This document shows, one piece after another, positions 4,860 through 47,852 of a stretch of DNA of 60,000 nt. Source of the stretch: Schmidtea polychroa (taxonomy: Eukaryota); assembly GCA_044892525.1 (NCBI GenBank), contig CM097885.1, positions 35,776,001 to 35,836,000 of the forward strand. The letters run 5' to 3'. A program made the position numbers and the translations under genes. Below the pieces are notes generated by a model. It had not been told where the DNA came from. It was given only the letters and a program-made list of their open reading frames with translations, and searched no databases. The number at the start of each line of letters is the position of its first letter. The first letter of the stretch is position 1.

Positions 4860-6040
<1,181 letters not shown>

Positions 6041-10522: not shown

Positions 10523-10849
10523 GTATTATTCAATATTTAATCATCATTGTTGTACTGATAGTTGTCTATTTCCCCATAATCCCCTCCATTCCTCCCTGAG
10601 GCAATAAATGTCAATATGAATAGTAGGATGTGTGCCCCCCCATTCTGAGGAAAAAAATATTAAGATAAAATTTTGATTAATATTTTTTTGTAGATCAACT
10701 AATACTTTCATGTAGGTCAACCCAATTTCAATGATTTTCATGAAATTTCTCAAAATGTTTATGTAGGTCACTCTTATAAAAACTTGTCCCCCCCCCAGGA
10801 CAATCGATATATAGTTATATAGATTTCATAAATAAATAGATTTATAGAT

Positions 10850-11620
10850 TTAATTTATATAGATTTAATATATAAGTAAGTCATATAGATTTAATAAATA
10901 AGTAGGTCATGTAGATTTAATAAATAAGTAAGACATATTTAATAAATAAGTAGGTCATATAAATCTAATAAGTAGGTGATATAGATTTAATAAATAAGTA
11001 GGTCATGTAGATTTAATAAATAAGTAAGACATATTTAATAAATAAGTGAGTCATATAAATCTAATAAGTAGGTGATATAGATTTCATAAATAAGTAGGTC
11101 ATATAGATTTAATAAATAAGTAGGTCATGTAGATTTAATAAATAAGTAAGACATATTTAATAAATAAGTGGGTCATATAAATCTAATAAGTAGGTGATAT
11201 AGATTTCATAAATAAGTAGGTCATATAGATTTAATAAATAAGTAGGTCATGTAGATTTAATAAATAAGTAAGACATATTTAATAAATAAGTGAGTCATAT
11301 AAATCTAATAAGTAGGTGATATAGATTTCATAAATAATTAGAACATATAGATTTAATAAATAAGTAGGTCATGTAGATTTAATAAATAAGTAAGACATAT
11401 TTAATAAATAAGTGGGTCATATAAATCTAATAAGTAGGTGATATAGATTTCATAAATAAGTAGGTCATATAGATTTAATAAATAAGTAGGTCATGTAGAT
11501 TTAATAAATAAGTAAGACATATTTAATAAATAAGTGAGTCATATAAATCTAATAAGTAGGTGATATAGATTTCATAAATAAGTAGGTCATATAGATTTAA
11601 TAAATAATTAGAACATAATA
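10850..11620. repeat. Intronic minisatellite, 122-bp period built from ~22-26-bp subunits
   Basis: ATAGATTTAATAAATAA recurs in register at 10981, 11103, 11225, 11347, 11469 and 11591. Confidence 0.95.
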
Positions 11621-12330: not shown

Positions 12331-12357
12331 TATTCATATTATTTTTATATCAGCTCA

Positions 12358-13372
<1,015 letters not shown>

Positions 13373-14886: not shown

Positions 14887-15279
14887 TTCATATCAAATGA
14901 GGTTAAGAAAATTCACACATGCACGCGTGAAACTAATTGTTTAAATGGAACGATTAATAGGTCTGATGACTAGCACTATATGAAAGATGGGAAATTCAAA
15001 AAATCAGTCCCCATTTTAGTATGAAAAAATTTAGAGTAATCCTGAGAATAATTATGTAAACAAAAGAAGTTGAGTATTATGGAAACATTCTAAATAATCA
15101 AAATATATTGGGTTGATCTCTGAGTTGCTATTATGTTAATAAACATCATGTGTCATACACTGAGTTGCAATTGATAAAATTAGTCTTTGATATTAGAAAC
15201 ATAATCAATAAATTATATTATAAGATACATACAAACTCGCATGTGTGCTAAAAATTCATTCATATATACCACAGTCCCT
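14887..15279 (+). repeat. Third copy of the flank segment (direct repeat of 25664-26056, inverted repeat of ~15452-15844)
   Basis: Base-by-base comparison shows 7 substitutions within 14902-15032, then identity up to ACAGTCCCT at 15279. Confidence 0.95.
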
Positions 15280-15944
15280 CAAGAGTACAAAAGGCTGGTT
15301 TTAATCTGGAAAAGTTGATCATGACGTGGTTGTTGTCAATATCGAGTTTCGCTGTATTTTTGTACAGCTTTATGATGCGAAACGGACCTTTGAATCTGGG
15401 TTTGAGGTTTGAAGAGTCGATAGTTCTCACCCATGTGTGAGTTGCGAGGAAAGGGACTGTGGTATATATGAATGAATTTTTAGCACACATGCGAGTTTGT
15501 ATGTATCTTATAATATAATTTATTGATTATGTTTCTAATATCAAAGACTAATTTTATCAATTGCAACTCAGTGTATGACACATGATGTTTATTAACATAA
15601 TAGCAACTCAGAGATCAACCCAATATATTTTGATTATTTAGAATGTTTCCATAATACTCAACTTCTTTTGTTTACATAATTATTCTCAGGATTACTCTTA
15701 ATTTTTTCATACTATAATGGGGACTGATTTTTTGAATTTCCCATCTTTCATATAGTGCTAGTTATCAGACTTATTAATCGTTCCATTTAAACAATTAGTT
15801 TCACCCGTGCAAGTGTGAATTTTCTTAAACTCATTTGATATGAAGTAGGTAGATAGTAGCTCCCCGCAGCAATGACCCCCCCCCACGGGGGGGGGGGGGG
15901 GGGTTCTGCTGCCGTAATTTTTTTGCTGCAACTTTTGATTACGC

Positions 15945-16620
15945 AATTTTTCAGACTATAGTGAGGGGGTCTCGATGGTCCTGGGATTTTCAATACAAAA
16001 AATTTTTTTCAATACAAAATCCGACTACCACTAAAAAAGCCAAGGATTATTCACACTATAGTGAGGTGGGTCTCGATGGTCCTGGGATTTTCAATACAAA
16101 TAAAATTTTTTCTATACAAAAATCCAACTACCAATAAAAAAGCATGGAATTTTCAGACTATAGTGAGGGGGTCTCGATGGTCCTGTGATTTTCAATACAA
16201 AAAATTTTTTTCTATACAAAAATTCGACTACCACTAAAAAAGCCAAGGATTTTTCAGACTATAGTGAGAGGGTCTCGATGGTCCTGGGATTTTCAATACA
16301 AATAAAATTTTTTCAATAGAAAATTCGACTATCAATAAAAAAGCATGGATTTTTCTAGTTCAATTAAGGTGGGTCTCCTTGGTCCTGAGAAAAAGGTGGT
16401 CTACACTAAAAAACGTGGTCCTGAGAATTTCAATACAAAAAGGCAGTATACACTAAAAAAGAGTGGCAATTTAAGGTCTCAGGATATTTTCAATACAAAA
16501 ATCCGACTACCACTAAAAAGCATGGATTTTTCTAGGCCAATTAATGCGGGTCTCCTTGGTCCTGAGAATTTCAATAGAAAAAGGTGGTCTACACTAAAAA
16601 AGCGTGGTAAATTTTTAAAA
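15945..16620. repeat. ~101-bp tandem repeat (mirrored at ~24890-25565)
   Basis: ACTATAGTGAG..GGTCTCGATGGTCCTG recurs near 15955, 16055, 16157 and 16258, followed by degenerate copies. Confidence 0.95.
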
Positions 16621-17620
16621 TAAAGTAAATAATGGTCCTAAAAATTAAATTACAGTAAATGATGGTCAAAATTTATGAATTACAGTAAATTATGGTCAAA
16701 ATTTTTCAAATACAGTAAAATAAGGTCCAATTTTTCAATTAAAGTAAATAATGGTCCTAAAAAATTAAAGTAAATAATGGTCCAAATTTTTGAATTAAAG
16801 TAAATTATGGTCCTAAAATTAAATTAAAGTAAATTAAGGTTCTAAAAACTTAAATTACAGTAAATTATGGTTCTTAAAAATTTAATTACAGTAAATAATG
16901 GTCCAAATTTTTGAATTAAAGTAAATTATGGTTCAAATTTTTCAATTAAAGTAATGAATGGGCTCAAATAACTAAATTAAGGTTCTAAAAAATTAAATTA
17001 AAGTAAATTAAGGTTCAAATTTTTCAATTAAAGTAAATTATGGTCCAAATTTTTGAATTACAGTAAATAATGGTCCAAATTTTTGAATTACAGTAAATAA
17101 TGGTTCTAAAAATTGAATTACAGTAAATTATGGTTCTAAAAAATTAAATTAAGGTTCTTAAAAATTAAATTACAGTAAATAATGGTCCAAATTTTTCAAT
17201 TACAGTTAATTATGGTTCTAAAAAATTAAATTAAAGTAAATTAAGGTTCAAATTTTTCAATTAAAGTAAATAATGGTCCAAATTTTTTAATTAAAGTAAA
17301 TTATGGTTCAAATTTTTAAATTAAAGTAATGAATGGGCTCAAATAACTAAATTAAGGTTCTAAAAAATTAAATTAAAGTTAATTAAGGTCCAAATTTTAA
17401 AATTAAGTAATCAATGGTCAAAAATTTTAAATTAAAGTAATGAATGGGCTCAAATAACTAAATTAAGGTTCTAAAAAATTAAATTAAAGTTAATTAAGGT
17501 CCAAATTTTAAAATTAAGTAATCAATGGTCAAAAATTTTAAATTAAAGTTAAATAAGTAAATTAAAGTAATAATTTTTAAATAAGTAATGTAATAAGTAA
17601 ATTAAAGTAAGATTTTAAAA
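16620..17620. repeat. ~29-30-bp tandem repeat array (mirrored at ~23890-24890)
   Basis: Consensus AATTA(A/C)AGTAAATTATGGT(C/T)CAAATTTTT, roughly 30 copies. Confidence 0.95.
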
Positions 17621-17869
17621 TTTATTAACAAAAAGTTGAAATAATAGAAGGTGTTTGAGAATTGAAATTTTTTAATGAAAATTTTTATGAAATAATTTTT
17701 TAAGTAATTTTTAATAGAAATTTTTATGGAATAATTTTTTAAGTTAATTTTTAATGGAAATTTTTATGAAATATTTTTCAATGATAATTTTAGATGGAAA
17801 TTTTTAAGATAATTTTTAATGAAAATTTCTATGAAATATTTTTCAAAGACAAATTTTAATAATAATTCA

Positions 17870-18900
17870 ACAACAAACCAACAACTTAGTACCAACAACC
17901 AGTAACTTATGAACATGTATTAACAATCAGATACCTACAACTAGTTACTAACAACCTGCTACCAAGTACTTACAATCAGTTACCTGCTACCAAATACTTT
18001 CAACATGATACCACGTACTAAATAACTCTCAAACAACCAGATACTTACAACCAATTACCAGATACCAAGTACCTACAACTAGTTACTAACAACTAGTTAC
18101 CTGATACTAAGTACCTACAACCATCTAACAAGTACTTACAACCAAAAACAAGCAACCAACTAGGTACCAAGTACTAACAACCGACAACAACCAGCTAACA
18201 ACTAACTACAACCTACCAAGTACCTACAACTAGATACTAACAACTAGTTACCAGATACCAACTACTCACAGACGTCAACAACCAGGTACTAAGCATTATT
18301 AACCAACTACTAAGTACCAACAACAACTAACTACCAACTACTAAGTACCTACAACCACCTACCTATTAACTAGCTACAACCACCTACTAACTAGCTACCA
18401 CCTACCCATTAACTAGTTACAACCAGCTAACTAGGTACTAGATACCAAGTACTAACAACCAGTTACCTGCTACTAAGTACCAACAACCACCTACCAAGTA
18501 CATACAACCAACATCAACCAGGTACTAAGCATTAATTACCAACTACTAAGTACCTACAATCACCTACCCATTAACTAGTTACTAAGTACTATCAACCAAC
18601 TAGGTACTAGATACCAAGTACTAACAACCAACAACAACCAGGTACTAATCATTAATTACCAATTACTAAGTACCTACAACCATCTACCAAGTACATACAA
18701 CCAAGTACTAAGCATTATTAACCAACTACTAAGTACCTACAACCGACTAGCTACCACCTACCAAGTACCACCAACAACGAGATACCTACAACTAGATACT
18801 AACAACTAGTTACCAGATACCTACTACTCACAGCCGTCAACAACCAGGTACTAAGCATCATCAACCAAGTAATAACAACTAGATACCTAGTACTTACGAC
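17870..18900. repeat. Strand-asymmetric C/A-rich degenerate repeat (mirrored at ~22610-23645)
   Basis: Shuffled units ACTAAGTACCTACAACC, CCAAGTAC and AACTAG. Confidence 0.9.
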
Positions 18901-19395
18901 CAGATGACCACATGAAATTATTGGTTAAATAAGTAAATTAATGTCTAATTTTTAAATTAAGTAATCAATGGTCTAAAATATTAAAGTTAAAGTTAATTTA
19001 AGATGAAGATTTTCTGGGATTTCCAATGTTAATTTTAGATGCAAATCTTCGTCAATTAATCAATGACCACATGAAATTATTAGTTAAATATGAAAATAAG
19101 GGTTATAATTAGTTGTTTAGTAAATTATGGTGTAAAATTAAGAAATAAAGAATAATTAGGTAAATTAAGGATAAATTAAGGAAAATTAAGGTTCAAAATT
19201 TAAAATTAAGTAACCAATGGTTCAAATTTTAAATTAAAGCTAAATAAGTAAATTAAAGTAAGATTTTTAAATTTATTATCAAAAGATTGAATAACCACCA
19301 ACTTTTTTGAGAAATGTAATTTTTAATGAAAATTTAAATGGAAATTTTTTTTAAGTTAATTTTAAATGTAAAATTTTTTAATGGAAATTTTAATG

Positions 19396-19480
<85 letters not shown>

Positions 19481-21412
19481 TCAACAGTTCCCAACAATCG
19501 GTTACTAAATATTTTTAACTAGATGCTAACAAATACTTTGAACATGATACCACGTACTAACTAACTCTCAAACAACCAGATACCTACAACTAGTTACTAA
19601 CAACCAACTAAGTATTCTTTATTGTATTTTATGAAATGTTTTTAAATTAATTTTTTATCTGTCTTTAAAAATATGTTTAATTACAATCAATCGAAAACCT
19701 TTTCAAAATGTCTAAATTTAACAAACATGTTGACTTTCATCAAAAAACCACAACTCAATCACTTTAAAACACCACGTGAAATTCAAAATAATTTAAATTA
19801 CAATGAAATACTAATGAATTCTAATTTACAAAAACATCTTCTTTTAAATGATAACTTATTATTGCATCGTAAAATCACATTCAATAAATACTTATTGTTG
19901 ATCAGTTTTATTATATATACTCTGAGTTTATCCGACAGGATGTTTTGACCCCCTAAGGGTACAGGTCGTAAGGGTACTGGTCGTAAGGGTATTAGTCGTA
20001 AAGGTACTAGTCGTAAGGATATTGCTAACTCTCAACCCCCACCTACCCATTAACTAGCTACTAAGTACTAACAACCAGTTACCTGATACCAAGTACATAC
20101 AACCAACATCAACCTGTTACTAAGCATTATCAACCTACAACTATATAAATATGGATAAATTTAATCTTTCTATGCAACTACTCAGTTATATTGTACAGTC
20201 AAATTTCAAGCAATATTTATTTTTAATTTCGAGTACAGTGATTAACAAAAATTTAATTATAACCGGTTTTATCATTAGATTTTATAAATTATTTAGAGTT
20301 AATGATTTTACCTGTTTTATAGGGAAATATTTGTGATAATACGAATTAAAGTTAGAATTATAGTCATTTAAAGGGGATTTTAAGGAATCTTATTAGTCTG
20401 AGGTAAATATATAACCTTTTAAGGATATTTATCGATAAAATACTAATCTTTAAAGATAGAGTTATTTTTGGGAAATTTGATGCTTTTTAGATGATTTTAT
20501 TGAATTATTTGTAATAATATTGATTAAGGGTAGAAATATAGTCTTTTAAGGGATTTTAAGGAATCTTGTTAGTTTGAGGTGAATATATGATATTTAACAA
20601 GTACTTATCGATAAGATACTAATCTTTAAAAATAGAGATATTTCAGGCGAAATGATTCTTTTTAGATGATTTTATTAGAGAATTCGCTTGAATATACCAA
20701 TTATTGTCATTTGAATGAATTTTCTGGTTTGTTAGTTTTCTAGTCTCTTTTGGAATTTAATGATAATTATTTTTATTGTAGATTGATGACATTGATAATT
20801 TTAATGAATTTATACTGATTTTTGAATATTTTGAGCATTCAGTCAATCAATTTGAGTACATGTATTATTTTTAAAAAAAAATAATTAAAATTAATTTTAT
20901 TTCAATTAATTTATTCAATCTAAATCAATTATCTACTAAATCTTATCTTATTAATTTATTATCTTAGTTGATTCAACTTGAATGATCAGTATTTTTTTAT
21001 TTACTGGATGATTAATGAATAGAATTCTTTCTTGTCTATTAATTAAATTTTTATGATATTTATTTTGAGTAAATTTAAATTTTTGCAATTATTTAATCAA
21101 TTTTTACCAAGTTATTGATGTCTTGAGTTCAATTAATTTTCCATCTAATTTTTCAAGTGATGAGTATTTTTCTTTTAAAGATCAATTTGTTAGTACATAG
21201 TTGTTGGTTGTAGGTAGTTGGTTGTTAGTACTTGGTAGTTGGTAGTTGGTATCTGATTGACTTTTTAGATTTTGATAAAAAGATAGTGTATGTGATGAAG
21301 AATATTTTGTATTTAATTGCTATTATTTTTATGTGTGGTTAGTTGATTGTTGGTATCTAGTTGTTGGTATCTTGTATTTAATAGTTGGTAGAGTGTTGTT
21401 TACTGATTGTTG

Positions 21413-22082
21413 TTATATAGTTGTAGGTTGATAATGCTTAGTAACAGGTTGATGTTGGTTGTATGTACTTGGTATCAGGTAACTGGTTGTTAGTACTTAG
21501 TAGCTAGTTAATGGGTAGGTGGGGGTTGAGAGTTAGCAATATCCTTACGACTAGTACCTTTACGACTAATACCCTTACGACCAGTACCCTTTTTGGACCA
21601 TTATTTACTTTAATTTTTTAGTACCTGTTATTTATTTGGACCATTATTTACTTTAATTTTTTAGTACCTGTTATTTATTGAATGTGATTTTTACTTTGCA
21701 ATAATAAGTTATCATTTAAAAGAAGATGTTTTTGTAAATTAGAATTCATTAGTATTTCATTGTAATTTAAATTATTTTGAATTTCACGTGGTGTTTTAAA
21801 GTGATTGAGTTGTGGTTTTTTGATGAAAGTCAACATGTTTGTTAAATTTAGACATTTTGAAAAGGTTTTCTATTGATTGTAATTAAACATATTTTTAAAG
21901 ACAGATAAAAAATTAATTTAAAAACATTTCATAAAATACAATAAAGAATACTTAGTTGGTTGTTAGTAACTAGTTGTAGGTATCTGGTTGTTTGAGAGTT
22001 AGTTAGTACGTGGTATCATGTTCAAAGTATTTGTTAGCATCTAGTTAAAAATATTTAGTAACCGATTGTTGGGAACTGTTGA

Positions 22083-22116
<34 letters not shown>

Positions 22117-25100
22117 CATTAAAATTTCCATTAAAAAATTTTACATTTAAAATTAACTTAAAAAAAATTTCCATTTAAATTTTCATTAAAAATTACATTT
22201 CTCAAAAAAGTTGGTGGTTATTCAATCTTTTGATAATAAATTTAAAAATCTTACTATAATTTACTTATTTAGCTTTAATTTAAAATTTGAACCATTGGTT
22301 ACTTAATTTTAAATTTTGAACCTTAATTTTCCTTAATTTATCCTTAATTTACCTAATTATTCTTTATTTCTTAATTTTACACCATAATTTACTAAACAAC
22401 TAATTATAACCCTTATTTTCATATTTAACTAATAATTTCATGTGGTCATTGATTAATTGACGAAGATTTGCATCTAAAATTAACATTGGAAATCCCAGAA
22501 AATCTTCATCTTAAATTAACTTTAACTTTAATATTTTAGACCATTGATTACTTAATTTAAAAATTAGACATTAATTTACTTATTTAACCAATAATTTCAT
22601 GTGGTCATCTGGTCGTAAGTACTAGGTATCTAGTTGTTATTACTTGGTTGATGATGCTTAGTACCTGGTTGTTGACGGCTGTGAGTAGTAGGTATCTGGT
22701 AACTAGTTGTTAGTATCTAGTTGTAGGTATCTCGTTGTTGGTGGTACTTGGTAGGTGGTAGCTAGTCGGTTGTAGGTACTTAGTAGTTGGTTAATAATGC
22801 TTAGTACTTGGTTGTATGTACTTGGTAGATGGTTGTAGGTACTTAGTAATTGGTAATTAATGATTAGTACCTGGTTGTTGTTGGTTGTTAGTACTTGGTA
22901 TCTAGTACCTAGTTGGTTGATAGTACTTAGTAACTAGTTAATGGGTAGGTGATTGTAGGTACTTAGTAGTTGGTAATTAATGCTTAGTACCTGGTTGATG
23001 TTGGTTGTATGTACTTGGTAGGTGGTTGTTGGTACTTAGTAGCAGGTAACTGGTTGTTAGTACTTGGTATCTAGTACCTAGTTAGCTGGTTGTAACTAGT
23101 TAATGGGTAGGTGGTAGCTAGTTAGTAGGTGGTTGTAGCTAGTTAATAGGTAGGTGGTTGTAGGTACTTAGTAGTTGGTAGTTAGTTGTTGTTGGTACTT
23201 AGTAGTTGGTTAATAATGCTTAGTACCTGGTTGTTGACGTCTGTGAGTAGTTGGTATCTGGTAACTAGTTGTTAGTATCTAGTTGTAGGTACTTGGTAGG
23301 TTGTAGTTAGTTGTTAGCTGGTTGTTGTCGGTTGTTAGTACTTGGTACCTAGTTGGTTGCTTGTTTTTGGTTGTAAGTACTTGTTAGATGGTTGTAGGTA
23401 CTTAGTATCAGGTAACTAGTTGTTAGTAACTAGTTGTAGGTACTTGGTATCTGGTAATTGGTTGTAAGTATCTGGTTGTTTGAGAGTTATTTAGTACGTG
23501 GTATCATGTTGAAAGTATTTGGTAGCAGGTAACTGATTGTAAGTACTTGGTAGCAGGTTGTTAGTAACTAGTTGTAGGTATCTGATTGTTAATACATGTT
23601 CATAAGTTACTGGTTGTTGGTACTAAGTTGTTGGTTTGTTGTTGAATTATTATTAAAATTTGTCTTTGAAAAATATTTCATAGAAATTTTCATTAAAAAT
23701 TATCTTAAAAATTTCCATCTAAAATTATCATTGAAAAATATTTCATAAAAATTTCCATTAAAAATTAACTTAAAAAATTATTCCATAAAAATTTCTATTA
23801 AAAATTACTTAAAAAATTATTTCATAAAAATTTTCATTAAAAAATTTCAATTCTCAAACACCTTCTATTATTTCAACTTTTTGTTAATAAATTTTAAAAT
23901 CTTACTTTAATTTACTTATTACATTACTTATTTAAAAATTATTACTTTAATTTACTTATTTAACTTTAATTTAAAATTTTTGACCATTGATTACTTAATT
24001 TTAAAATTTGGACCTTAATTAACTTTAATTTAATTTTTTAGAACCTTAATTTAGTTATTTGAGCCCATTCATTACTTTAATTTAAAATTTTTGACCATTG
24101 ATTACTTAATTTTAAAATTTGGACCTTAATTAACTTTAATTTAATTTTTTAGAACCTTAATTTAGTTATTTGAGCCCATTCATTACTTTAATTTAAAAAT
24201 TTGAACCATAATTTACTTTAATTAAAAAATTTGGACCATTATTTACTTTAATTGAAAAATTTGAACCTTAATTTACTTTAATTTAATTTTTTAGAACCAT
24301 AATTAACTGTAATTGAAAAATTTGGACCATTATTTACTGTAATTTAATTTTTAAGAACCTTAATTTAATTTTTTAGAACCATAATTTACTGTAATTCAAT
24401 TTTTAGAACCATTATTTACTGTAATTCAAAAATTTGGACCATTATTTACTGTAATTCAAAAATTTGGACCATAATTTACTTTAATTGAAAAATTTGAACC
24501 TTAATTTACTTTAATTTAATTTTTTAGAACCTTAATTTAGTTATTTGAGCCCATTCATTACTTTAATTGAAAAATTTGAACCATAATTTACTTTAATTCA
24601 AAAATTTGGACCATTATTTACTGTAATTAAATTTTTAAGAACCATAATTTACTGTAATTTAAGTTTTTAGAACCTTAATTTACTTTAATTTAATTTTAGG
24701 ACCATAATTTACTTTAATTCAAAAATTTGGACCATTATTTACTTTAATTTTTTAGGACCATTATTTACTTTAATTGAAAAATTGGACCTTATTTTACTGT
24801 ATTTGAAAAATTTTGACCATAATTTACTGTAATTCATAAATTTTGACCATCATTTACTGTAATTTAATTTTTAGGACCATTATTTACTTTATTTTAAAAA
24901 TTTACCACGCTTTTTTAGTGTAGACCACCTTTTTCTATTGAAATTCTCAGGACCAAGGAGACCCGCATTAATTGGCCTAGAAAAATCCATGCTTTTTAGT
25001 GGTAGTCGGATTTTTGTATTGAAAATATCCTGAGACCTTAAATTGCCACTCTTTTTTAGTGTATACTGCCTTTTTGTATTGAAATTCTCAGGACCACGTT

Positions 25101-26229
25101 TTTTAGTGTAGACCACCTTTTTCTCAGGACCAAGGAGACCCACCTTAATTGAACTAGAAAAATCCATGCTTTTTTATTGATAGTCGAATTTTCTATTGAA
25201 AAAATTTTATTTGTATTGAAAATCCCAGGACCATCGAGACCCTCTCACTATAGTCTGAAAAATCCTTGGCTTTTTTAGTGGTAGTCGAATTTTTGTATAG
25301 AAAAAAATTTTTTGTATTGAAAATCACAGGACCATCGAGACCCCCTCACTATAGTCTGAAAATTCCATGCTTTTTTATTGGTAGTTGGATTTTTGTATAG
25401 AAAAAATTTTATTTGTATTGAAAATCCCAGGACCATCGAGACCCACCTCACTATAGTGTGAATAATCCTTGGCTTTTTTAGTGGTAGTCGGATTTTGTAT
25501 TGAAAAAAATTTTTTGTATTGAAAATCCCAGGACCATCGAGACCCCCTCACTATAGTCTGAAAAATTGCGTAATCAAAAGTTGCAGCAAAAAAATTACGG
25601 CAGCAGAACCCCCCCCCCCCCGTGGGGGGGGGTCATTGCTGCGGGGAGCTACTATCTACCTACTTCATATCAAATGAGTTTAAGAAAATTCACACTTGCA
25701 CGGGTGAAACTAATTGTTTAAATGGAACGATTAATAAGTCTGATAACTAGCACTATATGAAAGATGGGAAATTCAAAAAATCAGTCCCCATTATAGTATG
25801 AAAAAATTAAGAGTAATCCTGAGAATAATTATGTAAACAAAAGAAGTTGAGTATTATGGAAACATTCTAAATAATCAAAATATATTGGGTTGATCTCTGA
25901 GTTGCTATTATGTTAATAAACATCATGTGTCATACACTGAGTTGCAATTGATAAAATTAGTCTTTGATATTAGAAACATAATCAATAAATTATATTATAA
26001 GATACATACAAACTCGCATGTGTGCTAAAAATTCATTCATATATACCACAGTCCCTTTCCTCGCAACTCACACATGGGTGAGAACTATCGACTCTTCAAA
26101 CCTCAAACCCAGATTCAAAGGTCCGTTTCGCATCATAAAGCTGTACAAAAATACAGCGAAACTCGATATTGACAACAACCACGTCATGATCAACTTTTCC
26201 AGATTAAAACCAGCCTTTTGTACTCTTGA
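21413..26229. repeat. Right arm of giant inverted repeat
   Basis: Reverse complement of 15279-20148. It differs by a shorter (ATT)n tract, G/C-run lengths, a few substitutions near the centre and a replaced ~85-bp segment at 21591-21677. Confidence 0.97.
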
Positions 26230-26875
26230 ATACGACGAAATCCCAAACAACCATATCACAAAAGACTATAACATAAACGAAGACATATTAGAAGACATGG
26301 AACAACCTACAACACTAGCAGACACACCAAATATTTAACTCCTTCAAAACAATCCGTCATTAGCCTCCAGGCGAACACGTAAACTCCCTCAATACCTCTC
26401 GAATTATGATATTCAGGGACTGCTTCCACCATTATCGTTGTCTTTATCTTTTGATACGCTCCGCGTACTTCGGCGGGGACTTTGTAGTGCCTCTGACTAG
26501 CACTTTTATCAATTTAATAATTGAATTAAAAATATATTATTAAATTAATTAAATTAAAATAAAATTAAAATGATTGTTTAAATAATCCTGTCTTTTTCCA
26601 AATAAATCATCAAATTCAATTTAAAAAGAAACAATGAATTAATTAACTTCGCAATAATCAAATCGAGTCAAAATCAATAAATCAAATATGCCAGAAATTC
26701 AAGAACCAGAAACGTTCGTCTTATTAGCAATGACCTCTATTATGATTGTCAAGATCTTCAACAATCTCCATGTAATCTCCAGATCAAGTGTTCGTGTTTT
26801 CGTCGGTATAAACTTTTATTGATTAACACAATTGAATATCAATATAAAGTTAAATAAATAATTAAATATTACAAC
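26056..26875 (+). mobile_element. Gypsy 3' remnant: integrase C-terminal GPF/Y domain, PPT-like tract and probable LTR
   Basis: LKPRFKGPFRIIKLYKNTAKLDIDNNHVMINFSRLKPAF. GGCGGGGA followed by TGTAGTG at ~26483; candidate end TTACAACA near 26875. Confidence 0.7.
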
Positions 26876-27726
26876 AATGACTTGATTGCTAATTGCAAAC
26901 TTTCGGGAAGACTATATTCTTCCGTCAAACATAGCGCCTAGACGTTATGTGTCAATACTGCGCCTACCGGGCGTTTTATTCGAACATAACGCCTAGGCGT
27001 TATATTTGAATAAAACGTGTGAAAACTTTAAATATGACACACAATCAAGTTTTTTAATGTGTCATATGACACATTTGCTTGTTGGGTACTTTACATTAAA
27101 AAATAAAACTTATATATGAAATTCCAATCTGTTGCGATTCAGATTTCCTGATTACATTTTTTTGGTTATATTTTTTTATAATTTTCGTAGTATGCAATGA
27201 CAATTCAAAATATCATGTTTTTATTACATCGACTTTTACTGAGAAATATATGTTTACGATTTGACAGCACATGAATAAATGTTACTTTATGAAAAAATTT
27301 CAAGTTTATTTTCAAGCACAACTTCTTCAAACTTTAAACAATCAATCCGTGCAAATAAAAGTTACACGAAATTACTTGGTGGTGGACGAAAATTGGAATT
27401 TCCTGAAATTGAAAATGAAGTATTGCAATGGGTAGTACTTGATAGAAATTCTAAGGGCTAAGGGTCAAAGATAAGTACATTCAATTAAAATCACTAGAAG
27501 TTTGTGAACGTTTGAAAATGATAGATAATGAAAACAATTCCAAGTGGATTAATTTCAAACATGAATCAAGGTGGTGTTAACGATTTAAAAATCGCCATAA
27601 GTTAGTATCTCGACGTCAAACTACAACAAAAAATCCCTGAAAATGTTAATGCTATTGTAAGCAATTTTTTAAAAATAATTCATGCCAAAATTGAGGAACA
27701 ACAAATAAAAATGTGCTATATCATTG

Positions 27727-29279: not shown

Positions 29280-30990
29280 TTTAACTCCCTAAAAATATAA
29301 ATTGTGAACCTATACTGATATAAATTACAACTCTAAAATAGTTTTATATAAATTATAAACTTATACTGATCATAAAGATATCAATTATAAATCCAAAATA
29401 GTTATATATAAATCATAAACTTGTACTGATTATATGAATATAAATTACACGTCCAAAATAGTTATATATAAATTATAAATTTGTACTGACTATAAAAGTA
29501 TAGATTATAAATTTAAAATATAAATTATAGGTTCATGTTGACTACAGAAGCATAAATTACAAATCTAAATGAGTTATAAAAATATATATTATAATTTCGA
29601 AGTGTGAGTTTGCTTTCATAGAATATAAGTCATGATTAGTTGTAAAAGAATAAATTACAAATTAATTTCATAAAATATAATTAGGAACTTATATTACCCC
29701 TAAATTATAAATTATAACTTAGAACTATCTATAAAAACATAAATTATAAGTTTATATTATCCCTACAAAATATAAACTTGAAACTTTGATTATCTATAAA
29801 AATATAAATTATAATTAGTTATAAAAGTATAAATTTAATTTCATAAAAAATATGAATAAGCTATAAAAGTATAAATTACGAACTTGATTTCATGAAAATA
29901 TAAATTATAATTAGTTATAAAAGTATAAAGTATAAATTTAACTTCATAAAAATATAAATTTTAAATTTATATTAGCTGTAAGAGTATAAATTATAATCTT
30001 AATTTGGTCATAAAAGTATAAAATATAAACTACGTTAGCGATAAAAATATAATCTATATATAATAATTTGTAAATATTTTATAAACAACCCCCCCCCCCA
30101 AGTTACGTATCGTCGAAACAAATGTTCAGATTCATAATCTAACTTATATATGTATATTTGAAACTTATAAAAGTATAACTTACATAACCCCCCTCAAACT
30201 ATATACATTAATCGAGAACAATATATAACATATTAACATATATATTAACATATATATGTACAGTTATCAAATTTAATAACCCCTCAGATCACATAACCAT
30301 TAATTATTATCTAAATGCATTTACATGTATATTTAACTTACATTACCTTTACACTATAAATTTAGAAATTTTTTCATAAATAACCCTCTTAATTCCTATA
30401 ACCATTAACCGCTACCTAAAAGCATTAATTTAGACTATTTTATATATATACTTAACTTAGATTACCTTTAAAATTATAATTGAAAATTTTTCATAAATGA
30501 CCCCCTCAAATCATATAGTCATTAATTATTACCCAAAAGTACTAATTTAGCTTATTTTCAGATATATTTAATTTAGATCACCGGTAAAATTATAGTGGAA
30601 AATCTTTCATCAAAGACCCCCCATAAACCATATAGTCATCAACTACAACCTAAATATACTAAATTAGCTTATCTTAATATACATTTAACTTATATTATAT
30701 TTAAAAATATAAATTGTAAATTTTCATAAATGACCCCCTCAGACCATATAGTCATTAAGGATTACCCAAAAGTACTAATTTAATTTGTTTTCAGATATAT
30801 TTAACTTATATTACCTTTAAAAATATAACTTGTATTTTTCGTAACCGACATCCTCAAATCATGTTGCCGTTAGCTATTCCTTAGGTAAAATGAATTAGAT
30901 CATATTCATATAGAGTTAAATCATACTTCATGTAAAAATATAATTTCATAATTTTTCGTAAATGACCCGCCCCCAAGCTGTATACATGTG
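29280..30990. repeat. Degenerate tandem arrays of ~60-bp (29290-29560), ~30-bp and ~116-bp (30265-30990) units
   Basis: AAAATAGTTATATATAAAT-like units at 60-bp spacing. AAATGACCCCCTC-like motif near 30380, 30496, 30612, 30728, 30844 and 30960. Confidence 0.85.
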
Positions 30991-32119: not shown

Positions 32120-32784
32120 GATACACAGAAAGAAATAAAGATGAGAGATGCGATGAGCGTCGACGAAATAAAAGGAGTGATAAAGAAGGTCGATGATATA
32201 AACATTGAAGTATCCGGAATTTCTGTTTTAAATAGAAGAATGAAATGTTTGCGAGTATTGTCAAGGCAGGAAAAGGATTTGCATAGAACCAAAGCAAACA
32301 TTTTTCAAATTCACAACGGAGTGAACAAAGATATGATCCAACACCGAGGATGAAAGCTGAAAGATCAGTTATTACATGTTGGAATTGTCAGGAGGTGGGT
32401 CATATGAGTCGAAAATGTCGGGAACCAAGGGTTCAGAAATGCTTCCAATGTGGAAAAGAAGGGCACCAATCCAGAGAGTGCAATCAGAGAGCACAGAATG
32501 CAGAGATGAGATGTTTTGCGTGTAAAGATATTGGACACAACAGAAGAGAATGCCCATCAATATCGTGCTCAGGATGCGGTAGAAGAGGTCACTTACGATT
32601 TCAATGCTGGAATCAGGCAGACAGAAGAAGATACGCAGACGAGCGTGGACCACCGAGACAGACGCAAGTAGCCGCGTTTCAGACTGATCAAGCCGAGAAC
32701 GACGAAAAGATCTCATGTCAAGATGAAGACTACCCAAACCAAGAAGCTCCATCGTTAGGCGAGATGATCGGAGCAATGAATTAA
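32120..32784 (+). pseudogene. Retrotransposon gag C-terminus with four CCHC zinc knuckles
   Basis: CWNCQEVGHMSRKC, CFQCGKEGHQSREC, CFACKDIGHNRREC and CSGCGRRGHLRFQC. PBS-like TGGCAAC at 32072; frame break near 32350. Confidence 0.9.
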
Positions 32785-33189
32785 TGGGTAATAATGACGA
32801 TTGTGCATGCCAGTATAATTGTATAAGTAGATATAAATATATTAATAGTATTAGTAGTAAAGTGAATAGTATAATTCCTTTTGTAAATAATGTATATAAT
32901 ATAGAAAATATTAATAATAATGTGAATAGTATAAATCCTTTCGTAGATAATTTAAATAAAGTAAATAATAAAATGTTGGATGAGAATAATGTAATTAGAA
33001 ATAATTGTAGCAGTAGAATTGTAGGAAATATCGATATAGTTGAAAAAATAATGAACTGGAAACAAATTTTAAAAAAGCGAATCAATGTGAAATAATAGAA
33101 AATGTAAAAACTAAAAAGTCGGTAAAAAATAAAGTTACGGATATTCATGATGTAATTATTTTAAATATGCCGAATGTGCAAAAATTGAT

Positions 33190-33864
33190 CATTACACTAA
33201 ATACATATTTCTAACTTCTATTAGAAAGCAAGATGAAAATACAATAAAGCCAGTTTTGTTAAATAATTGGATATTGAAATTTGGAGCCCCTAAGGAACTA
33301 CGTGTTGATTGTGAAAAGAATTTCGAAGCAAATAGTATTAAAGAACTAGCAAAGGCAGCAGGAATTGAGTTGATATTTTCGAGTCCGTATCATCATAATA
33401 CTAATGGTGTAATTGAAAGACGATTTCGTACTATAAGAGACTATATTAACGCGTCACTCAGAGAAGGAGTTAAAAAAAGCTGGGCAGAAGTAATACCTGA
33501 TATAGAATACGTGTTAAATGCAACAGCTCAGAAAATTACTGGAGTGAGTCCAGCAGAAATTATATTTGGGAAAAAGATTAATAGATCGCAATGGCATAGT
33601 AATAATGAAGTGGATAGAAATGAAATCATGCGGAAATTAGAGGCTAAAAGACAGCAAGCGAAATAAATTGGCACAACTAAGAACTTAGAAGTGGGGTCAA
33701 AGTATTGGTGAAACAAGAAATTAGAAACAAAGATCACGAGAGATATGAAGGACCATACACAGTAATAAAACGAAATCATGAAAGAAGTTACTTATTAACA
33801 GACGAAAACGGGAGAAAAATAACGAGGAATATAGAAAAGTTAAAGCATTTTAAAGAAGGGGGGA
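33190..33864 (+). pseudogene. Truncated Gypsy integrase ending in a PPT
   Basis: KFGAPKELRVD...FSSPYHHNTNGVIERRFRTI and a frameshifted YEGPY motif. PPT AAAGAAGGGGGGA at 33852-33864. Confidence 0.9.
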
Positions 33865-34144
33865 TGTAAGGAGTTAGTAAACCCCTATATAAAATTATTA
33901 TGGTTAAATGGTAGAAGGGAGATCAGTTAGTAGAAATAATTATTACTGTTAAATTTTTATATATTAAATTATATCATATTATATTAAATTATATTAAATT
34001 AAATCAATTAAATGTATGACCCGTAATTACATTAATATTAATAATTATCACGCCTCGGTGTTTAAATACGCTAGTAAACGAAGTTTTGAAGTTGATATAA
34101 AAAATAAATGCTTGAAGAAGATTTGAATTTAATTGCGTCTAACA
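33865..34144 (+). repeat. LTR-like segment between PPT and PBS
   Basis: Starts TGTAA directly after the PPT and ends TAACA directly before TTGGCAATGACC. Confidence 0.7.
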
Positions 34145-34166
34145 TTGGCAATGACCTCTACTAAAC

Positions 34167-35294
34167 ATGGATTACAATGGCAAAAAAGGTAATGAAGAGA
34201 TAGAACATATGAGAAAAGCAATAGATAAACATGAGACTACGAGATTTAAAATCAACGAAGATTTAATTTTAACAAGAGAAAATAAAATTTGGATCCCAAA
34301 AGAAAATAAAATAGAATTTGTCAAAGACATGTACAAAATGCTGTGTCACGCTGGATGTAAGAAGGTAATCGATTATATAAAAGTTAATTACGATATGGAG
34401 GAATTAAATACAATCGCGAATCAATATATACAAAGTTGTGAAATATGTCAGAAACGAAAAACAGTGACAACAAAAACAAAAGAACTAATTGTAAAAACAC
34501 AAGTGGCGGAACCGTTTGAGGTTATAGCGATAGATTTTTGTGGACCTTTGCAGGCAAACATTCATGGAAAGAAATATATTCTGGGAATTATAGATGTGTG
34601 TAGTCGATACATTTTATTGACAGCAGTAGCAAAGGAGGACGAAAAAACTACAGCGAATACTATTGTGAAATTCTGGATATTAAAATACGGGGTACCGAGA
34701 ATTATTTATGTTGATTGTGGAAAAACATTCGAATCTAACTTGATAAAAGAGTTGGCTAAGAATCACAATATACAGCTACAATTTTCTAGCCCTTATCATC
34801 ATAACACTTATGGTTTGATTGAAAGACAATTTCGAACAATACGAGATTTTATCAGTACATCATTAAGAGATAAAGTTAAGAGAAATTTGGTTGAAGTGTT
34901 ACCTGAAATTGAGTTTACTTTAAATGCTACTATCCAAAGCACAACTGGAAAGAGTCCATCAGAAGCAGTATTTGGTTTTCGGATATCTAGAAAATGGAAC
35001 AATAATAAAAGAATATACAACGATAGAAGTAAAATAGTGGAGGAAGTGCAATCAAAACAACGAAATTTAAATTATAAAAATGAGAACCGGATACACCAAG
35101 AATTCGATATAAATGAAAAAGTTTTAGTTAGAGTAGATTTAAGAAAGAAAGAAGACCGATATACAGGATTTTTTGTCGTTGTTAGAAAGATCCATGCAAA
35201 TAGTTATAAATTACGAGACAGAGATGGAAAAATTATAGTTCGCAACGTTGAATGGTTAAAACCTTTTAAACAGGGAGATGTTAGGGATATTTAA
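34167..35294 (+). CDS. Uninterrupted 375-aa Gypsy-type integrase with no RT, RNase H or protease
   Basis: Zinc-binding region (CHAG...CEIC), catalytic core AIDFCGP / YVDCGKTF / GLIERQFRT, and C-terminal RYTGFF...RNVEWLKPF. Confidence 0.9.
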   Translation: MDYNGKKGNEEIEHMRKAIDKHETTRFKINEDLILTRENKIWIPKENKIEFVKDMYKMLCHAGCKKVIDYIKVNYDMEELNTIANQYIQSCEICQKRKTVTTKTKELIVKTQVAEPFEVIAIDFCGPLQANIHGKKYILGIIDVCSRYILLTAVAKEDEKTTANTIVKFWILKYGVPRIIYVDCGKTFESNLIKELAKNHNIQLQFSSPYHHNTYGLIERQFRTIRDFISTSLRDKVKRNLVEVLPEIEFTLNATIQSTTGKSPSEAVFGFRISRKWNNNKRIYNDRSKIVEEVQSKQRNLNYKNENRIHQEFDINEKVLVRVDLRKKEDRYTGFFVVVRKIHANSYKLRDRDGKIIVRNVEWLKPFKQGDVRDI

Positions 35295-35532: not shown

Positions 35533-37252
35533 ATCATTAATTTCGACCAAGTACCCGCTGTTTCGAATCTGAACCAAAAACGACTATAACCCAGAAGTGA
35601 TGCAGAGAAGTTTTAATGAGAAAAGCCGTAACATCACATAAAAGTTTCCCAACCACATTATGTATAACTTTGGAGGGTAAATTTTTAAAACCACACACTG
35701 TGTTCTCGAATTTAAATAAAAAACCAATTGTAAACAAAAAGTGTCTTGTAGATGTGAATAGAACTGGAATGTTTAACGATGACATCTTGAAACAATATAT
35801 TAAAGAAATTATTTTGTGTAGGCCACAAACCAGTTAAGCTCGTGATCCAGTATTGCTGATAATGGATTCTTACGAAAGCCATGTAAAATTACATGAATCT
35901 AAATATCTGGAAAAATTCAATATTTTTGTTGTGCTAGTGCCTCAAAATTTGACAGGTCTCCTGCAACCCTTAGACGTTGCAGTAAATCGTAGTTTTCAAG
36001 CATATAATAATACACGGTATAATAAATATATATCAGAAGCACCCAAAAATTCAGAAATGCAAACTCGACAAGGAAATGCTAAAATTCCTAACTATAAAAT
36101 AGTTAGCGACTGGGTTATGGACTATATATCGACAAAGGATTCTAGTTTTATAGTAAAAGCATTTAAATGTTGCGGAATTGTACCTAAAATAGATTTTAAT
36201 ATTGATGCACTCCATACTACTTAACAAAAAATTTGCAACCTACTTTTAATTACGATGATTGGATTCATGAAAATGAAGATTTAATTGCTGAAAATTCGAA
36301 TTTTTATGACAATGAAGATTGTGAGGATTGGTTTTATCCAGAGGAAGTGTCAACAAGTTTTTTAGATGTGTTCATCAGATAAAAGATAAAAACCGTTCTT
36401 TTTCAGTTGTTATGAATAATTACATGCCACAAATAATTTCATGTATAAAAAGTAATCCAGATACATCTGACATTTTAGATGGGCATAACGAAGAATTTAT
36501 AAGTAGTGGCGAAAATTCTTCTTCATATGCCGAAATTTATGCTACTACCTTAAAAGAAAAATTGTGCATAAAAGTAGTAGAAGTGGACGAAAATTGTGTT
36601 CAAGTTGAAAACTTTACGTATGAAGTAGTTTCTTCATATTTACTTAATTTTATTTCATTAAATATATATATATATATATATTTATGTGAAAAGTAATGTT
36701 TAGTTCCTATTTAATATTTTTATTTTTATTTAATATACACACATATAGGAGTTAATAATCCTAAAATGGTGTTATACTGTTGCCAACCCGTATATTTATG
36801 TGAATTCTGAAGTTATGTGTAGGTTATTTTTTTTATTAATATAACTTAATTTCATAAAAAATCTTTTATTTCAAATATAGTGCCTAGGCGTTCTACTACG
36901 CTAGGTGTTCTAAACGGAAAAAATGCGAAAAATTTTAAACCGGAATAAAAAGCTTTCCCGAATATAGCGCCTAGACGCTATGTTCGACGGAAAACTGTAG
37001 CATATTTACAATACAACTTGGATTTCACAACCACTGACTACTGTTTCTGAATTCGATGATTCAAATCACTATTATTATAATTAATATTAAAATGCCGTAT
37101 CTAAAAGATAAAATTGATCTATATATTCTACTTTCGGCATTTTCAAATATCCTATTCACAGAAAATTAATTAAAGCTAAATTTATTTAAAATTAAAAATA
37201 TAAAAGTAATATAACGTTCAAAACATCTAATTAAAAGAATTATTATTCAAAA

Positions 37253-44121: not shown

Positions 44122-45329
44122 TTCAGTCACAAAACACATGATATTATACCAACAATGTTGTCAGGAAATTGACAAGTATGGGTAACTTTTATTTATGTGT
44201 CATTTCATGAATTGTTACTTATTATGGTATTTTGAGAATATAGGGTTGAGCATAATCATTGTTTTGGTTTTCAATTTTTTTTGAACAAGCGAAATTGTTT
44301 TCAACACTAAATTACTTATTTTTCAGACCCACAGCCAACCACTTATATAAGTTAATAAAATGAATACCAACCAGGAATGATAGTTGTACTGTGACGTGTA
44401 TACGGAGCAATTTTACCAACCTGTTTATTAGGAACTTCTTGGTGAAATGTGTGGATAATGATCAGCATTGACCTTGTCTACATGTGGTGTCAATGTAAAT
44501 AATTAAATCGACCGAGACCATGTCAAACATTTAGTTCGTGCGTAGCTCCAAGGTCTTGACATAACACTAAGAGTTTAACGTATCCGAGTCCAGTGGACCG
44601 GTGCGATGGACAATTTTATTAACTAATGCAACAGACTCATAGCGCATAACGACCTCACACCAAAATCACATTTAAATACAATAATAATAAGACACTAAGT
44701 GTTCGCTTCTCAAACGTCCAGTGGGCTGAGAGAAAGAGCATTCTAACAAAAATTAACGCAAAATCATCACCACATACAATGAAGATTAGAATTGTTTCAA
44801 CATTAATGAATAATTGCAGATTATCATGCTTTAATAAACAAAAATAATGACAGATCCCTATCAAAAATCTTTAAACCCTCAATTTTAACTTTGATTTTGC
44901 GACATGTGTTCAGGAAATAAGAACGGAACTAGATAGACTAGAGAGCTTCCGACAATTTGGGAAGGAGGAACACAAGTCGAATATGCGGTGGAAACCTTAA
45001 ATAGTTTACCGATAACAAAAGCAGTATTTACGGGAACAATACAGGATTCTTAAGGTATTTCCTTACAATTTCGCCAAAAGCCTTGAAGTTCTGCAAGAGA
45101 CTAGAGAGCTTCCAACAATTTGGGAAGGAGGGACACAAGTCGAATATGATAAAGCAGTCAACATATAGTCCAAAACCGGATGTGAAGCACTTTTTGGTTA
45201 CATGATGGTATATCTGAAATTGGGCATATATCTGTTGACAGATTACTTTCAACAATTCAAAAGGAAAATATTAGCACATAATAGATTGGAACCATTGTAT
45301 TTTTTTCGAAATTCCAATAATGTTGTAGG

Positions 45330-46270
45330 CATCTTCATTGAAGTCTTTGGATAGACCCATTGAATTGATACGGGACAATGAGATGCACAATTATTATGAA
45401 GCTGGAATTTCATTAACAAAAATTAAATAAAGTGAGGTGAAAATGCAGAATTATTATATATCGATATAAATAATCTGTATGGATGGCCGCTTTGTCATAG
45501 TTTGCCATATGAACATTTTCAATGGATGCATGAAAATTTGGAAAATATATTACAAAAATGTAAGTAAGCAGATCTAGAGAATCATGAATAGGGATATACG
45601 TCGGAAGTTTACATGACTATTCCAGATTAAGTTCATGATTTAACTGTTGCACCGGAAAAATTGTGTCCAGAAGGAACAAAGGTAAAGAAGTTTTTACTGA
45701 CACATCACCCGAAGAAAAACTATACAATTTATTGGAGATTATTGAAAATTTATATGATTTTGGGTGTGGAAGTAACAAATATACATCAGGCAATCAAATT
45801 TAAACTGTCAACAATTTTCAAGGAATATCTGGAAATCAACTCTAAATTCAAGAAATCAATCAAGATCCGAATTGTAAAAAGGATATTATAAGTTATTAAA
45901 CAATAACTAATATGGCAAAACGATTGAGAATATAAAGAAGATGAAAATTTTGAGATTATACAATTCTCAACGGAAAATGGTAACATTCTCCTCAAAACTA
46001 ACCTTCAGGAGAAGCATAAAGATTGCGGAAAATTCAATAGTTGCAATTAAGAACCAGGAATGTGTATATTTTAATAGACCATCATATATTGGGCAAGCAG
46101 TTATAGACCTATCCAAACGAATAATGTACGAGCTCCAATATATAGAACTTCGAAAGTATCGGGAACAGTTCAATAGTGAAATTAACATAGCAGCTGGAGG
46201 AACCAACTCATTCTTTTTGGAAATTAATAATCTCAAACTGGAAACATTATTAGAGACTATGATCGCGGGC
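45330..46270 (+). pseudogene. Decayed Polinton/Maverick (adintovirus-type) protein-primed family B DNA polymerase
   Basis: PIELIRDNEMHNYYEAGI, YIDINNLYGW...SLPYEHFQW, YKLLNNN*YGKTIENI and FNRPSYIGQAVIDLSKRIMYE correspond to the pPolB motifs DxNNLYG, KxxxNxxYGK and KPIYVG..ILDLSK. Many stops and frameshifts. Confidence 0.88.
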
Positions 46271-47852
46271 AAGCAGTATCTAATTCGAGGTCAAAAGGTA
46301 GTCAAGTTGGAGCTGTTTGGGCGACTGCCCAATTGAAAGTCGCTTTCTTTTAGTAGGACTTAGATGTTGATTTATAACATAGACCCTTGATGTATGATCT
46401 TAGAGGGATACCCAACTACCTCTCGGTCTAGTAGTGATTTTGAGAAGATTGAGGTAGTTATAAAATACTGCGTCATAAAAGATGAGAACAAGTTAAATGT
46501 AGGGGAATCAGTCAAATCACGCCACTTATTCTTTTTCGGAATAAAGCTAACGAAAACGAATAATTAGACTCCAAGCATTATCCAGCAGCGGGGAAGCTGA
46601 TCTATATAAGATATGAAATGAATTCCACGATATCCCTGATCACTAGTTAAATTCAGCCACGTTTTAGACTAATAAAGTTAAATTTTCGGTGACAGGATGA
46701 TGGTCTTAAGCCAGGCGGCACCATTAATTAAACAAACAATTTGAAGACCAAAGTCTCTGACGATTTGAATAACAAATTATGTCGATGCCACTCTCACACA
46801 TGTCAAGATAAGTGATTTTACTTTCTAAAAGAAATGGGTGATCGAAATTTTAATTTATTAAATTGTATTTTCGTAATTACATTATCTAAGGACTCGTTGT
46901 CAATTTAAAATTATTATATTCATCTTTAACATTCCATTTGCTAAATTTTCATTTGAAGAAAATTATTTTTTAAATTCCAAAAATTTCTTTAATTAATTTT
47001 TGTACTTAGATTTTCAAATCGATTCTACATTTAAATTTTATTTAACTAGTCTTTCATTTAAAAATCTTATATTTACAATGTCCTTCGAAAATTAGGATTC
47101 ACCTATATTTAATTTGAAATTCTCTTTTTAAAATGCATTTATCTTAATTTCTCAATAATAACTCTTTACGAAGTACTTTATTTACATCTGTTCTGCCTCT
47201 AAGTTATTTTTAAAATTTTTATTTCAAAGATTAAGTAATTATTGATTTTCTGTGTGAAAATATAAATAAATTAATTAATTAAATAAATAAAAGTAATATA
47301 AAATATTAAACGATGTATGTTGTAGATTAATGTGGTATGCAAATTCCTTATACTTAAATTACTCGACTTTGAATAAAAATCCTCGTGAAGATTTGTTTAA
47401 AATTTGTAAACAATTGCATTGTTTTGAATTTAATAAATATTAGTATTTGATTATGGCTGTAACTGCACAATTTTGTTTTTCTGATACTATTTTGATACAA
47501 TTCCTTGATATTAACAATGACTCAAATTTTTTCTGTCTTTAATTTATTTCAAATAACTATAGTGATAAAAATGATGTTTTTAACTTTTTGTGTAAAATAT
47601 TTTGAATTGTTTATTATGTAAAAATTATAAATGGTAGCCATAAAGTTTCAAAGATAAATTTAAAATATAATTAAGAAAAAATGAATAGAATAAAGAATAA
47701 TTTTTACATTGATCTCCAATCTCTTCATTCTGACCTCTTTTTAAAATATAACAAAAATAAATGTAATTGTAAAATCAATAAATTATAAATATATATATAT
47801 ATATAATTAACGTTAATCATGAATTAAAGGGTTAAAAAATATTAATGTAACC

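Follow-up and report, generated by a model that had tools for sequence, protein, structure and literature searches.

A gene-less palindromic element of Schmidtea polychroa with a mirrored host flank, best read as a non-autonomous Maverick/Polinton satellite

What kind of element consists almost wholly of two inverted arms and encodes nothing, and how did host DNA come to be mirrored at its edge? Both questions are raised by a 60,000-nt stretch of the Schmidtea polychroa genome (contig CM097885.1, 35,776,001-35,836,000), referred to here as the window, within which all positions are counted. The window is a gap-free (0 N), AT-rich and transposon-dense animal region, and a scan of 14 open reading frames (ORFs) gave gypsy integrase, DDE_1 and FAM184 matches. 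An earlier note on this DNA had described an ~11-kb palindrome of inverted arms around a 1264-bp core. Arms and core were both recovered, but the size was not: the element proper is 9821 bp long, and the inverted arms do not start at its AG terminus. The earlier note had missed a mirrored 565-bp host flank and did not mention a third copy of that flank. The best reading of the sequence is that the element is a non-autonomous Maverick/Polinton satellite, which would make it a variant of known elements, and that the mirrored flank is peculiar to this copy.

We compared the two arms along their whole length. Counted with their flank (15279-20148 and 21413-26229), they are 97.8% identical over 4877 columns, with 3550 nt at 100%; without it, they account for 87% of the 9821-bp element. 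From each end inward, the order of modules was as previously claimed: AG end, GC hairpin, 101-bp repeats, 30-bp repeats, AT module, C/A-rich repeats, (AAT)n and 15-bp repeats (Table 1). Folding of the GC hairpin region (15844-15945) gave -22.1 kcal/mol (z -2.4), and 4 of 200 shuffles were equally stable. Self-comparison showed that the arms are nested module duplications, including a degenerate duplicate of the 30-bp and AT modules at 18925-19398 that we grade as older. In the core, it revealed remnants of the C/A module in inverted orientation (21187-21400) and an ~180-bp tandem duplication (20306-20676, 81%). Elsewhere in the window, a 100-bp stretch at 5042-5149 is 77-82% like the arm AT module (17671-17803) and is possibly a low-complexity chance match or an old fragment.

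The arms had been described as near-identical, which holds overall but not uniformly, as their inner 0.9 kb has diverged. They differ in the length of a G-run (17 versus 13), by substitutions at 19256 and 19692, in (AAT)28 versus 11 copies and by a replaced block of ~100 bp, and every one of these differences except the G-run is confined to the inner 0.9 kb. Two substitutions fall in the inner 893 bp and none in the outer 3412 bp (p 0.043 for substitutions alone and 0.009 with the block swap, the boundary having been picked afterwards and the G-run excluded). Two time layers in the arms fit recent copying, but also panhandle repair or reuse of right-arm reads by the assembler.

Coding content was then sought within the element. 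The longest ORF starting with ATG encodes 92 amino acids (aa), none of the three longest distinct ORFs had a Pfam match at E values up to 1, an Rfam search for structured RNA families returned no match, and ORF and domain scans found no transposase sequence. A 1227-aa Polinton-type polymerase used as a tblastn query matched nothing inside the element and matched the window only at 45055-46225; among Maverick genes this polymerase alone served as a query against the element. The proposal of a non-coding element, almost 90% TIR (terminal inverted repeat), with Polinton-like ends agrees with the arm share, the lack of any ORF above 92 aa, the end motif, the very deep contigs that carry the terminus in a public run and the filled/empty polymorphism of the site, the last three of which are set out below.

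The ends of the element, AGTAGG...CCTACT, match the vertebrate Maverick motif 5'-(AGT)2//(ACT)2-3' at five of six bases. Vertebrate Mavericks end in this motif or in (AG)3//(CT)3, and the intact ones have TIRs of 46-1447 bp, 6-bp duplications and seven or eight genes (PMC8097293; this and the other papers are cited for the passages available from them). The element resembles Mavericks/Polintons (PMC8097293, PMC6431247) in its AGT...ACT ends with a short terminal repetition, in having TIRs and in a size near 10-20 kb, and a Polinton-type polymerase relic shares its window. Unlike them, it has no integrase, polymerase, ATPase, protease or capsid gene, so that its gene content is not that of an autonomous element; its arms measure 4.3 kb, compared to 46-1447 bp in intact vertebrate elements, they make up 87% of its length, and there is no target-site duplication at this copy. 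The 16-bp AG terminus has exact matches within the window only at 15844 and at 25649-25664.

We searched more widely for relatives. The exact terminus and the repeat patterns gave 0 loci in viral contigs and 0 in metagenome contigs. A 17-bp terminus seed found four viral loci, which were dismissed as chance because all lay mid-contig and only 5-13 of 43 further letters agreed, and scans for related loci using the polymerase piece and P0001 confirmed nothing. Repbase includes non-autonomous Polintons. Gene-less, almost wholly palindromic Mavericks were not described in the titles and abstracts searched, a search that did not extend to subscription papers or Repbase; expansion of Polinton inverted repeats is mentioned in the available text of PMC3573991. 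As far as its available text states, a coral survey limited its TIR search to 2500 bp and demanded a long loop (PMC11131425), and such screens would therefore miss this palindrome.

The flanks of the element showed an unusual arrangement. Host DNA next to the right terminus is present three times in the assembly, forward at 14887-15279, inverted at 15452-15844 and forward again at 25664-26056, with the two alleles in a 1:2 ratio. The features of an inverted triplication were found together in the assembly: three copies with the middle one inverted, one junction at inverted repeats and the other at 1-bp microhomology. Because the left flank is the inverted right flank, there is no direct target-site duplication and this copy cannot display one, which leaves it ill suited as a reference copy of its family.

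Part of the flank belongs to a gypsy element. Its integrase frame runs from 25982 to a stop at 26338, with an SH3_Tf2-1 match (E 0.0037) below the cut-off, and at 26038-26900, beyond the 3' end of the gypsy integrase, lie a purine tract near 26470 and, at ~26484, the TG start of a possible long terminal repeat. Gypsy variants are abundant in public sequencing runs. We assign the 19 bp up to 15470 to gypsy because gypsy-variant contigs reach 15470 and loose ends begin at 15471. The flank was also considered as a small TIR element with ends at 15279 and 15452, a candidate that was dropped after the evidence from gypsy-variant contigs. Positions 15471-15534 (also 15197-15260 and 25974-26037) belong to a repeat of very high copy number, of which they form a short piece flanked on either side by loose ends. 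Its summed depth reaches 249,000 in one public run (X15), and its missing 5' part starts with TC, which is reminiscent of Helitron ends.

Public runs offered independent sequence for the left part of the locus. Words from 15240-21412 were found in 18 listed public runs from 5 studies, and 7 runs held at least half of them. Contigs of 4 of the 18 runs (X1, X3, X6 and X15), which may stem from individuals other than the assembled one, were aligned onto 15240-15945, a comparison that stops short of the core and inner junctions. In X15, one contig of depth 172 passes from the flank 29 letters into the terminus, two letters below the 31-letter bridging rule, with 18 more letters in a skipped repeat. 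The same run holds a second allele carrying two of the empty-copy letters at depth 104, giving a filled-to-empty depth ratio of 1.66. In X1, a 668-nt contig departs exactly at 15843 with 564 unaligned letters beyond it, which marks an empty site. Four of the seven letters that distinguish the third flank copy recur in X1 or X15. We therefore take the third copy to be a natural empty allele and the site to be polymorphic, as these letters recur in independent runs together with filled and empty contigs.

Depth at the terminus was compared with that of the adjacent flank bin. It was 92,837 versus 285 in X15 (325-fold) and 299 versus 43 in X1 (7-fold), where bin depth is summed contig depth and not copy number; it was 0 in X3 and X6, the latter giving no aligned record. 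The earlier note had held that its proposal would fail if the terminus occurred nowhere else, and the terminus was found on very deep contigs of a public run. Terminus depth lies far above flank depth, which hints at many termini or copies. The left fold-back junction (15279/15280) was confirmed by no contig of the four runs, nor was it excluded. Two observations next to it were weighed neither way: the bin at 15240-15263, left of the junction, had depth 0 in all four runs, and the 11 loose ends at 15279 among the records listed (10 from X15, one from X3) all had an ordinary gypsy continuation. Separately, runs X6-X9 are four 20-23 Mb sediment metagenome assemblies from one sample that hold 0.32-0.35 of the arm words, and nothing from X6 aligned to the outer 706 bp.

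How might such a locus have arisen? We propose that a gene-less two-armed Maverick-type element was replicated and inserted by a helper, and that its mirrored flank came from later arm-templated repair, an account that we consider about as probable as not. An autonomous Maverick would likely supply both the polymerase that replicates the element and the integrase that inserts it. Insertion by the helper integrase would have occurred between 14887 and 14888 and left a 6-bp duplication. The arms would then pair as a panhandle, which would keep the ends alike and allow inward growth of the arms by copying of modules. Later, a broken strand would have used the arms to change template, would have been extended along the right arm outward beyond its terminus and through 565 bp of flank, and would finally have been joined to the empty homologue by 1-bp microhomology. 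Such events would erase the true left flank and leave three copies of the right one in forward, inverted and forward order with alleles at 1:2, which is the DUP-TRP/INV-DUP pattern. Replication of Mavericks through a folded single strand is itself a model drawn from sequence alone. Maverick virions have not been seen, according to PMC8097293.

Precedents for parts of this pathway exist. Inverted triplications have been described in which one junction lies at inverted repeats, microhomology marks the other and the template changes from one homologue to the other (PMC6480824, PMC10766186). As in DUP-TRP/INV-DUP rearrangements, the present locus combines a forward-inverted-forward order, junctions at long inverted repeats and at microhomology, and alleles of both homologues at 2:1 (PMC6480824, PMC10766186). 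It differs from those presented in the available passages in that the multiplied part is only 0.4-0.6 kb, the inverted repeats are arms of a mobile element and the junction is present in the assembly without being confirmed by reads. Polinton TIRs have also been implicated in local inversions and duplications at eri-6/7 of C. elegans (10.1101/2024.01.15.575659). There, recombination takes place between 744-bp TIRs that belong to several coding Polinton remnants; here, one gene-less palindrome appears to have templated its own flank.

Several observations weigh against this account. The match to the end motif is incomplete, and Mavericks are not the only elements with AG...CT ends. At this copy, where the flanks are inverted, no 6-bp direct target-site duplication is visible, and neither a second copy nor a same-ended helper was retrieved in scans of viral and metagenome contigs. 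In intact vertebrate Mavericks the longest TIR measures 1447 bp (PMC8097293), a third of the present arm length. Three of the seven empty-copy letters are absent from every run examined, and the ratio of terminus to flank depth lies 45-fold apart between X15 and X1, which is unexplained. Finally, the allele type switches exactly at 15279/15280. The same switch would be predicted if the satellite were real and had, in the animal, a normal left flank together with a 6-bp duplication, while the assembler, misled by a fold-back read and by outer arms of identical sequence, had mis-joined the two haplotypes, one empty and one filled, and so produced the mirrored flank and its junction. Flank included, the arms agree over their outer 3.98 kb in all but the length of the G-run (17 vs 13), and homopolymer-length differences such as this are of the kind that sequencing error produces. 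Also in keeping with a mis-join, and counting against arm-templated repair, the 172-bp fold-back spacer is shorter than the 200-bp limit set in the definition of fold-back read artefacts (PMC12870357). According to the available text of that paper, these make up ~0.6% of Nanopore genomic reads and are virtually lacking from HiFi data, which would speak against a mis-join if the assembly was built from HiFi reads. The same explanation requires that a chimeric read and, independently of it, a false overlap within the arms both arose in a window that shows no gap, and the X15 ratio of 1.66 is closer to 2:1 than to 1:1, a weak hint. We grade the mis-join as a serious rival, possible though not probable; the mirrored flank may thus be either biological or a product of assembly.

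Two further explanations, both weaker than the mis-join, concern the element itself. The locus could stem from a single event in the chromosome that duplicated one truncated element end, with its flank, in inverted orientation, in which case the arms would not be TIRs and the core would be a spacer. This would account for a symmetry that extends 565 bp beyond the termini, for the missing target-site duplication and for the failure of viral and metagenome contig scans to retrieve a second two-armed copy. We consider it improbable, as duplication in one step predicts arms of uniform age, whereas here the inner arms have diverged and swapped a block while the outer parts are identical, and older remnants of the arm C/A module stand inverted in the core. 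Alternatively, a non-autonomous cut-and-paste element similar to Foldback/Galileo, moved by a DDE transposase that binds internal tandem repeats, would have acquired Polinton-like ends by coincidence. DDE transposase relics do occur in the window (DDE_1 at 35838-36224), and Foldback/Galileo of Drosophila likewise have long repetitive TIRs whose two arms contain unequal numbers of repeats and lengthen as they take in sequence from further inside (PMC3573991). However, the longest Galileo TIRs given in the available text are ~1.26 kb (PMC3573991), so that the present arms are 3-4 times longer; the ends fit the Maverick motif at five of six bases, and the element has neither a transposase sequence or remnant nor, at this copy, a target duplication. 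We regard this last explanation as improbable too.

A relic of a protein-primed DNA polymerase B had been reported ~20 kb from the palindrome and is present near 45-46 kb. We recognised polymerase motifs in it. Its piece at 45911-46333 matches one 1227-aa protein, among 374 candidates, at 31% identity; this protein bears an endonuclease VII match and aligns to 45055-46225 across the frame change. In the atlas set matched at 0.91, DNA_pol_B_2 occurs in 16% of members. No element ends were found near the relic, which therefore shows that Polintons occur in this genome without linking them to the palindrome. A 51-bp direct repeat (44935-44985 and 45098-45148, 96%) precedes it.

Table 1 Features of the palindromic element, its flanks and the polymerase relic (positions in the window)
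Feature	Position	Strand	Description
Third flank copy, without element (empty-site allele)	14887-15279	+	393 bp, 7 differences, 98.2%
Fold-back junction	15279-15280	n/a	Forward empty allele to inverted strand 172 bp downstream, 1-bp microhomology
Mirror copy of right flank	15279-15843	-	565 bp, 100% identical; stands in place of true left flank
Element proper	15844-25664	n/a	9821 bp, 26.9% GC, AGT...ACT ends, gene-less
Left arm (TIR)	15844-20148	+	4305 bp; outer 3412 bp equal to right arm save G-run
Subterminal GC hairpin, C-run/G-run	15866-15912	+	Mirror copy near 25600-25642
101-bp repeats	15946-16355	+	x4.1; degenerate copies extend to ~16608
~30-bp repeats	16614-17556	+	x32.6
AT module, C/A-rich repeats, degenerate duplicate, then (AAT)28	17561-19480	+	Right arm has 11 AAT copies
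15-bp repeats	19954-20018	+	x4.3; right-arm counterpart 21543-21591, x3.3
Unique core	20149-21412	n/a	1264 bp, 22.5% GC, non-coding
Right arm (TIR)	21413-25664	-	4252 bp; 43-bp x2 block (21592-21679) substitutes left-arm 19867-19969
Native right flank	25665-26229	+	373 bp host DNA ending in high-copy repeat, then 192 bp gypsy integrase
Broken protein-primed DNA polymerase B relic, Polinton type	45055-46333	+	Stops, frame change

The rest of the window holds further repeats and broken elements. A 122-bp tandem array (x6.2, 94% matches) occupies 10814-11617, with more arrays at 29318-30052 and 30320-30862 (117 bp x4.6), and a compound (AAT)n array of ~1 kb with repeated variant blocks lies at 12357-13370. 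A gypsy relic at 32287-35294 comprises a gag with a zinc knuckle and two integrase frames that are related to each other (33303-33569 and 34709-34975, 69%). Broken transposase-like frames were seen on the reverse strand at 55709-57585, 177-1209 and 2290-2634; by eye we take these to be hAT-like, and the longest had no Pfam match.

If the helper-replicated Maverick account is extended to a family, snap-back Maverick satellites might replicate as panhandles in the manner of defective-interfering genomes and exist partly as free linear DNA. The present copy would then record synthesis that overran the terminus, entered host DNA and continued on the homologue, and inverted triplications and allele swaps would arise from the family repeatedly in this genome. 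We think this extension rather unlikely.

If the mirrored flank is a mis-join, it would mean that palindromes of this kind corrupt assemblies without leaving a gap. If it is real, it would be a direct footprint of arm-templated synthesis and a route to host rearrangement between homologues. An element with only ends, a hairpin and two huge arms would mark the minimal signals needed in cis, and may provide a handle for testing the folded-strand model of Maverick replication.

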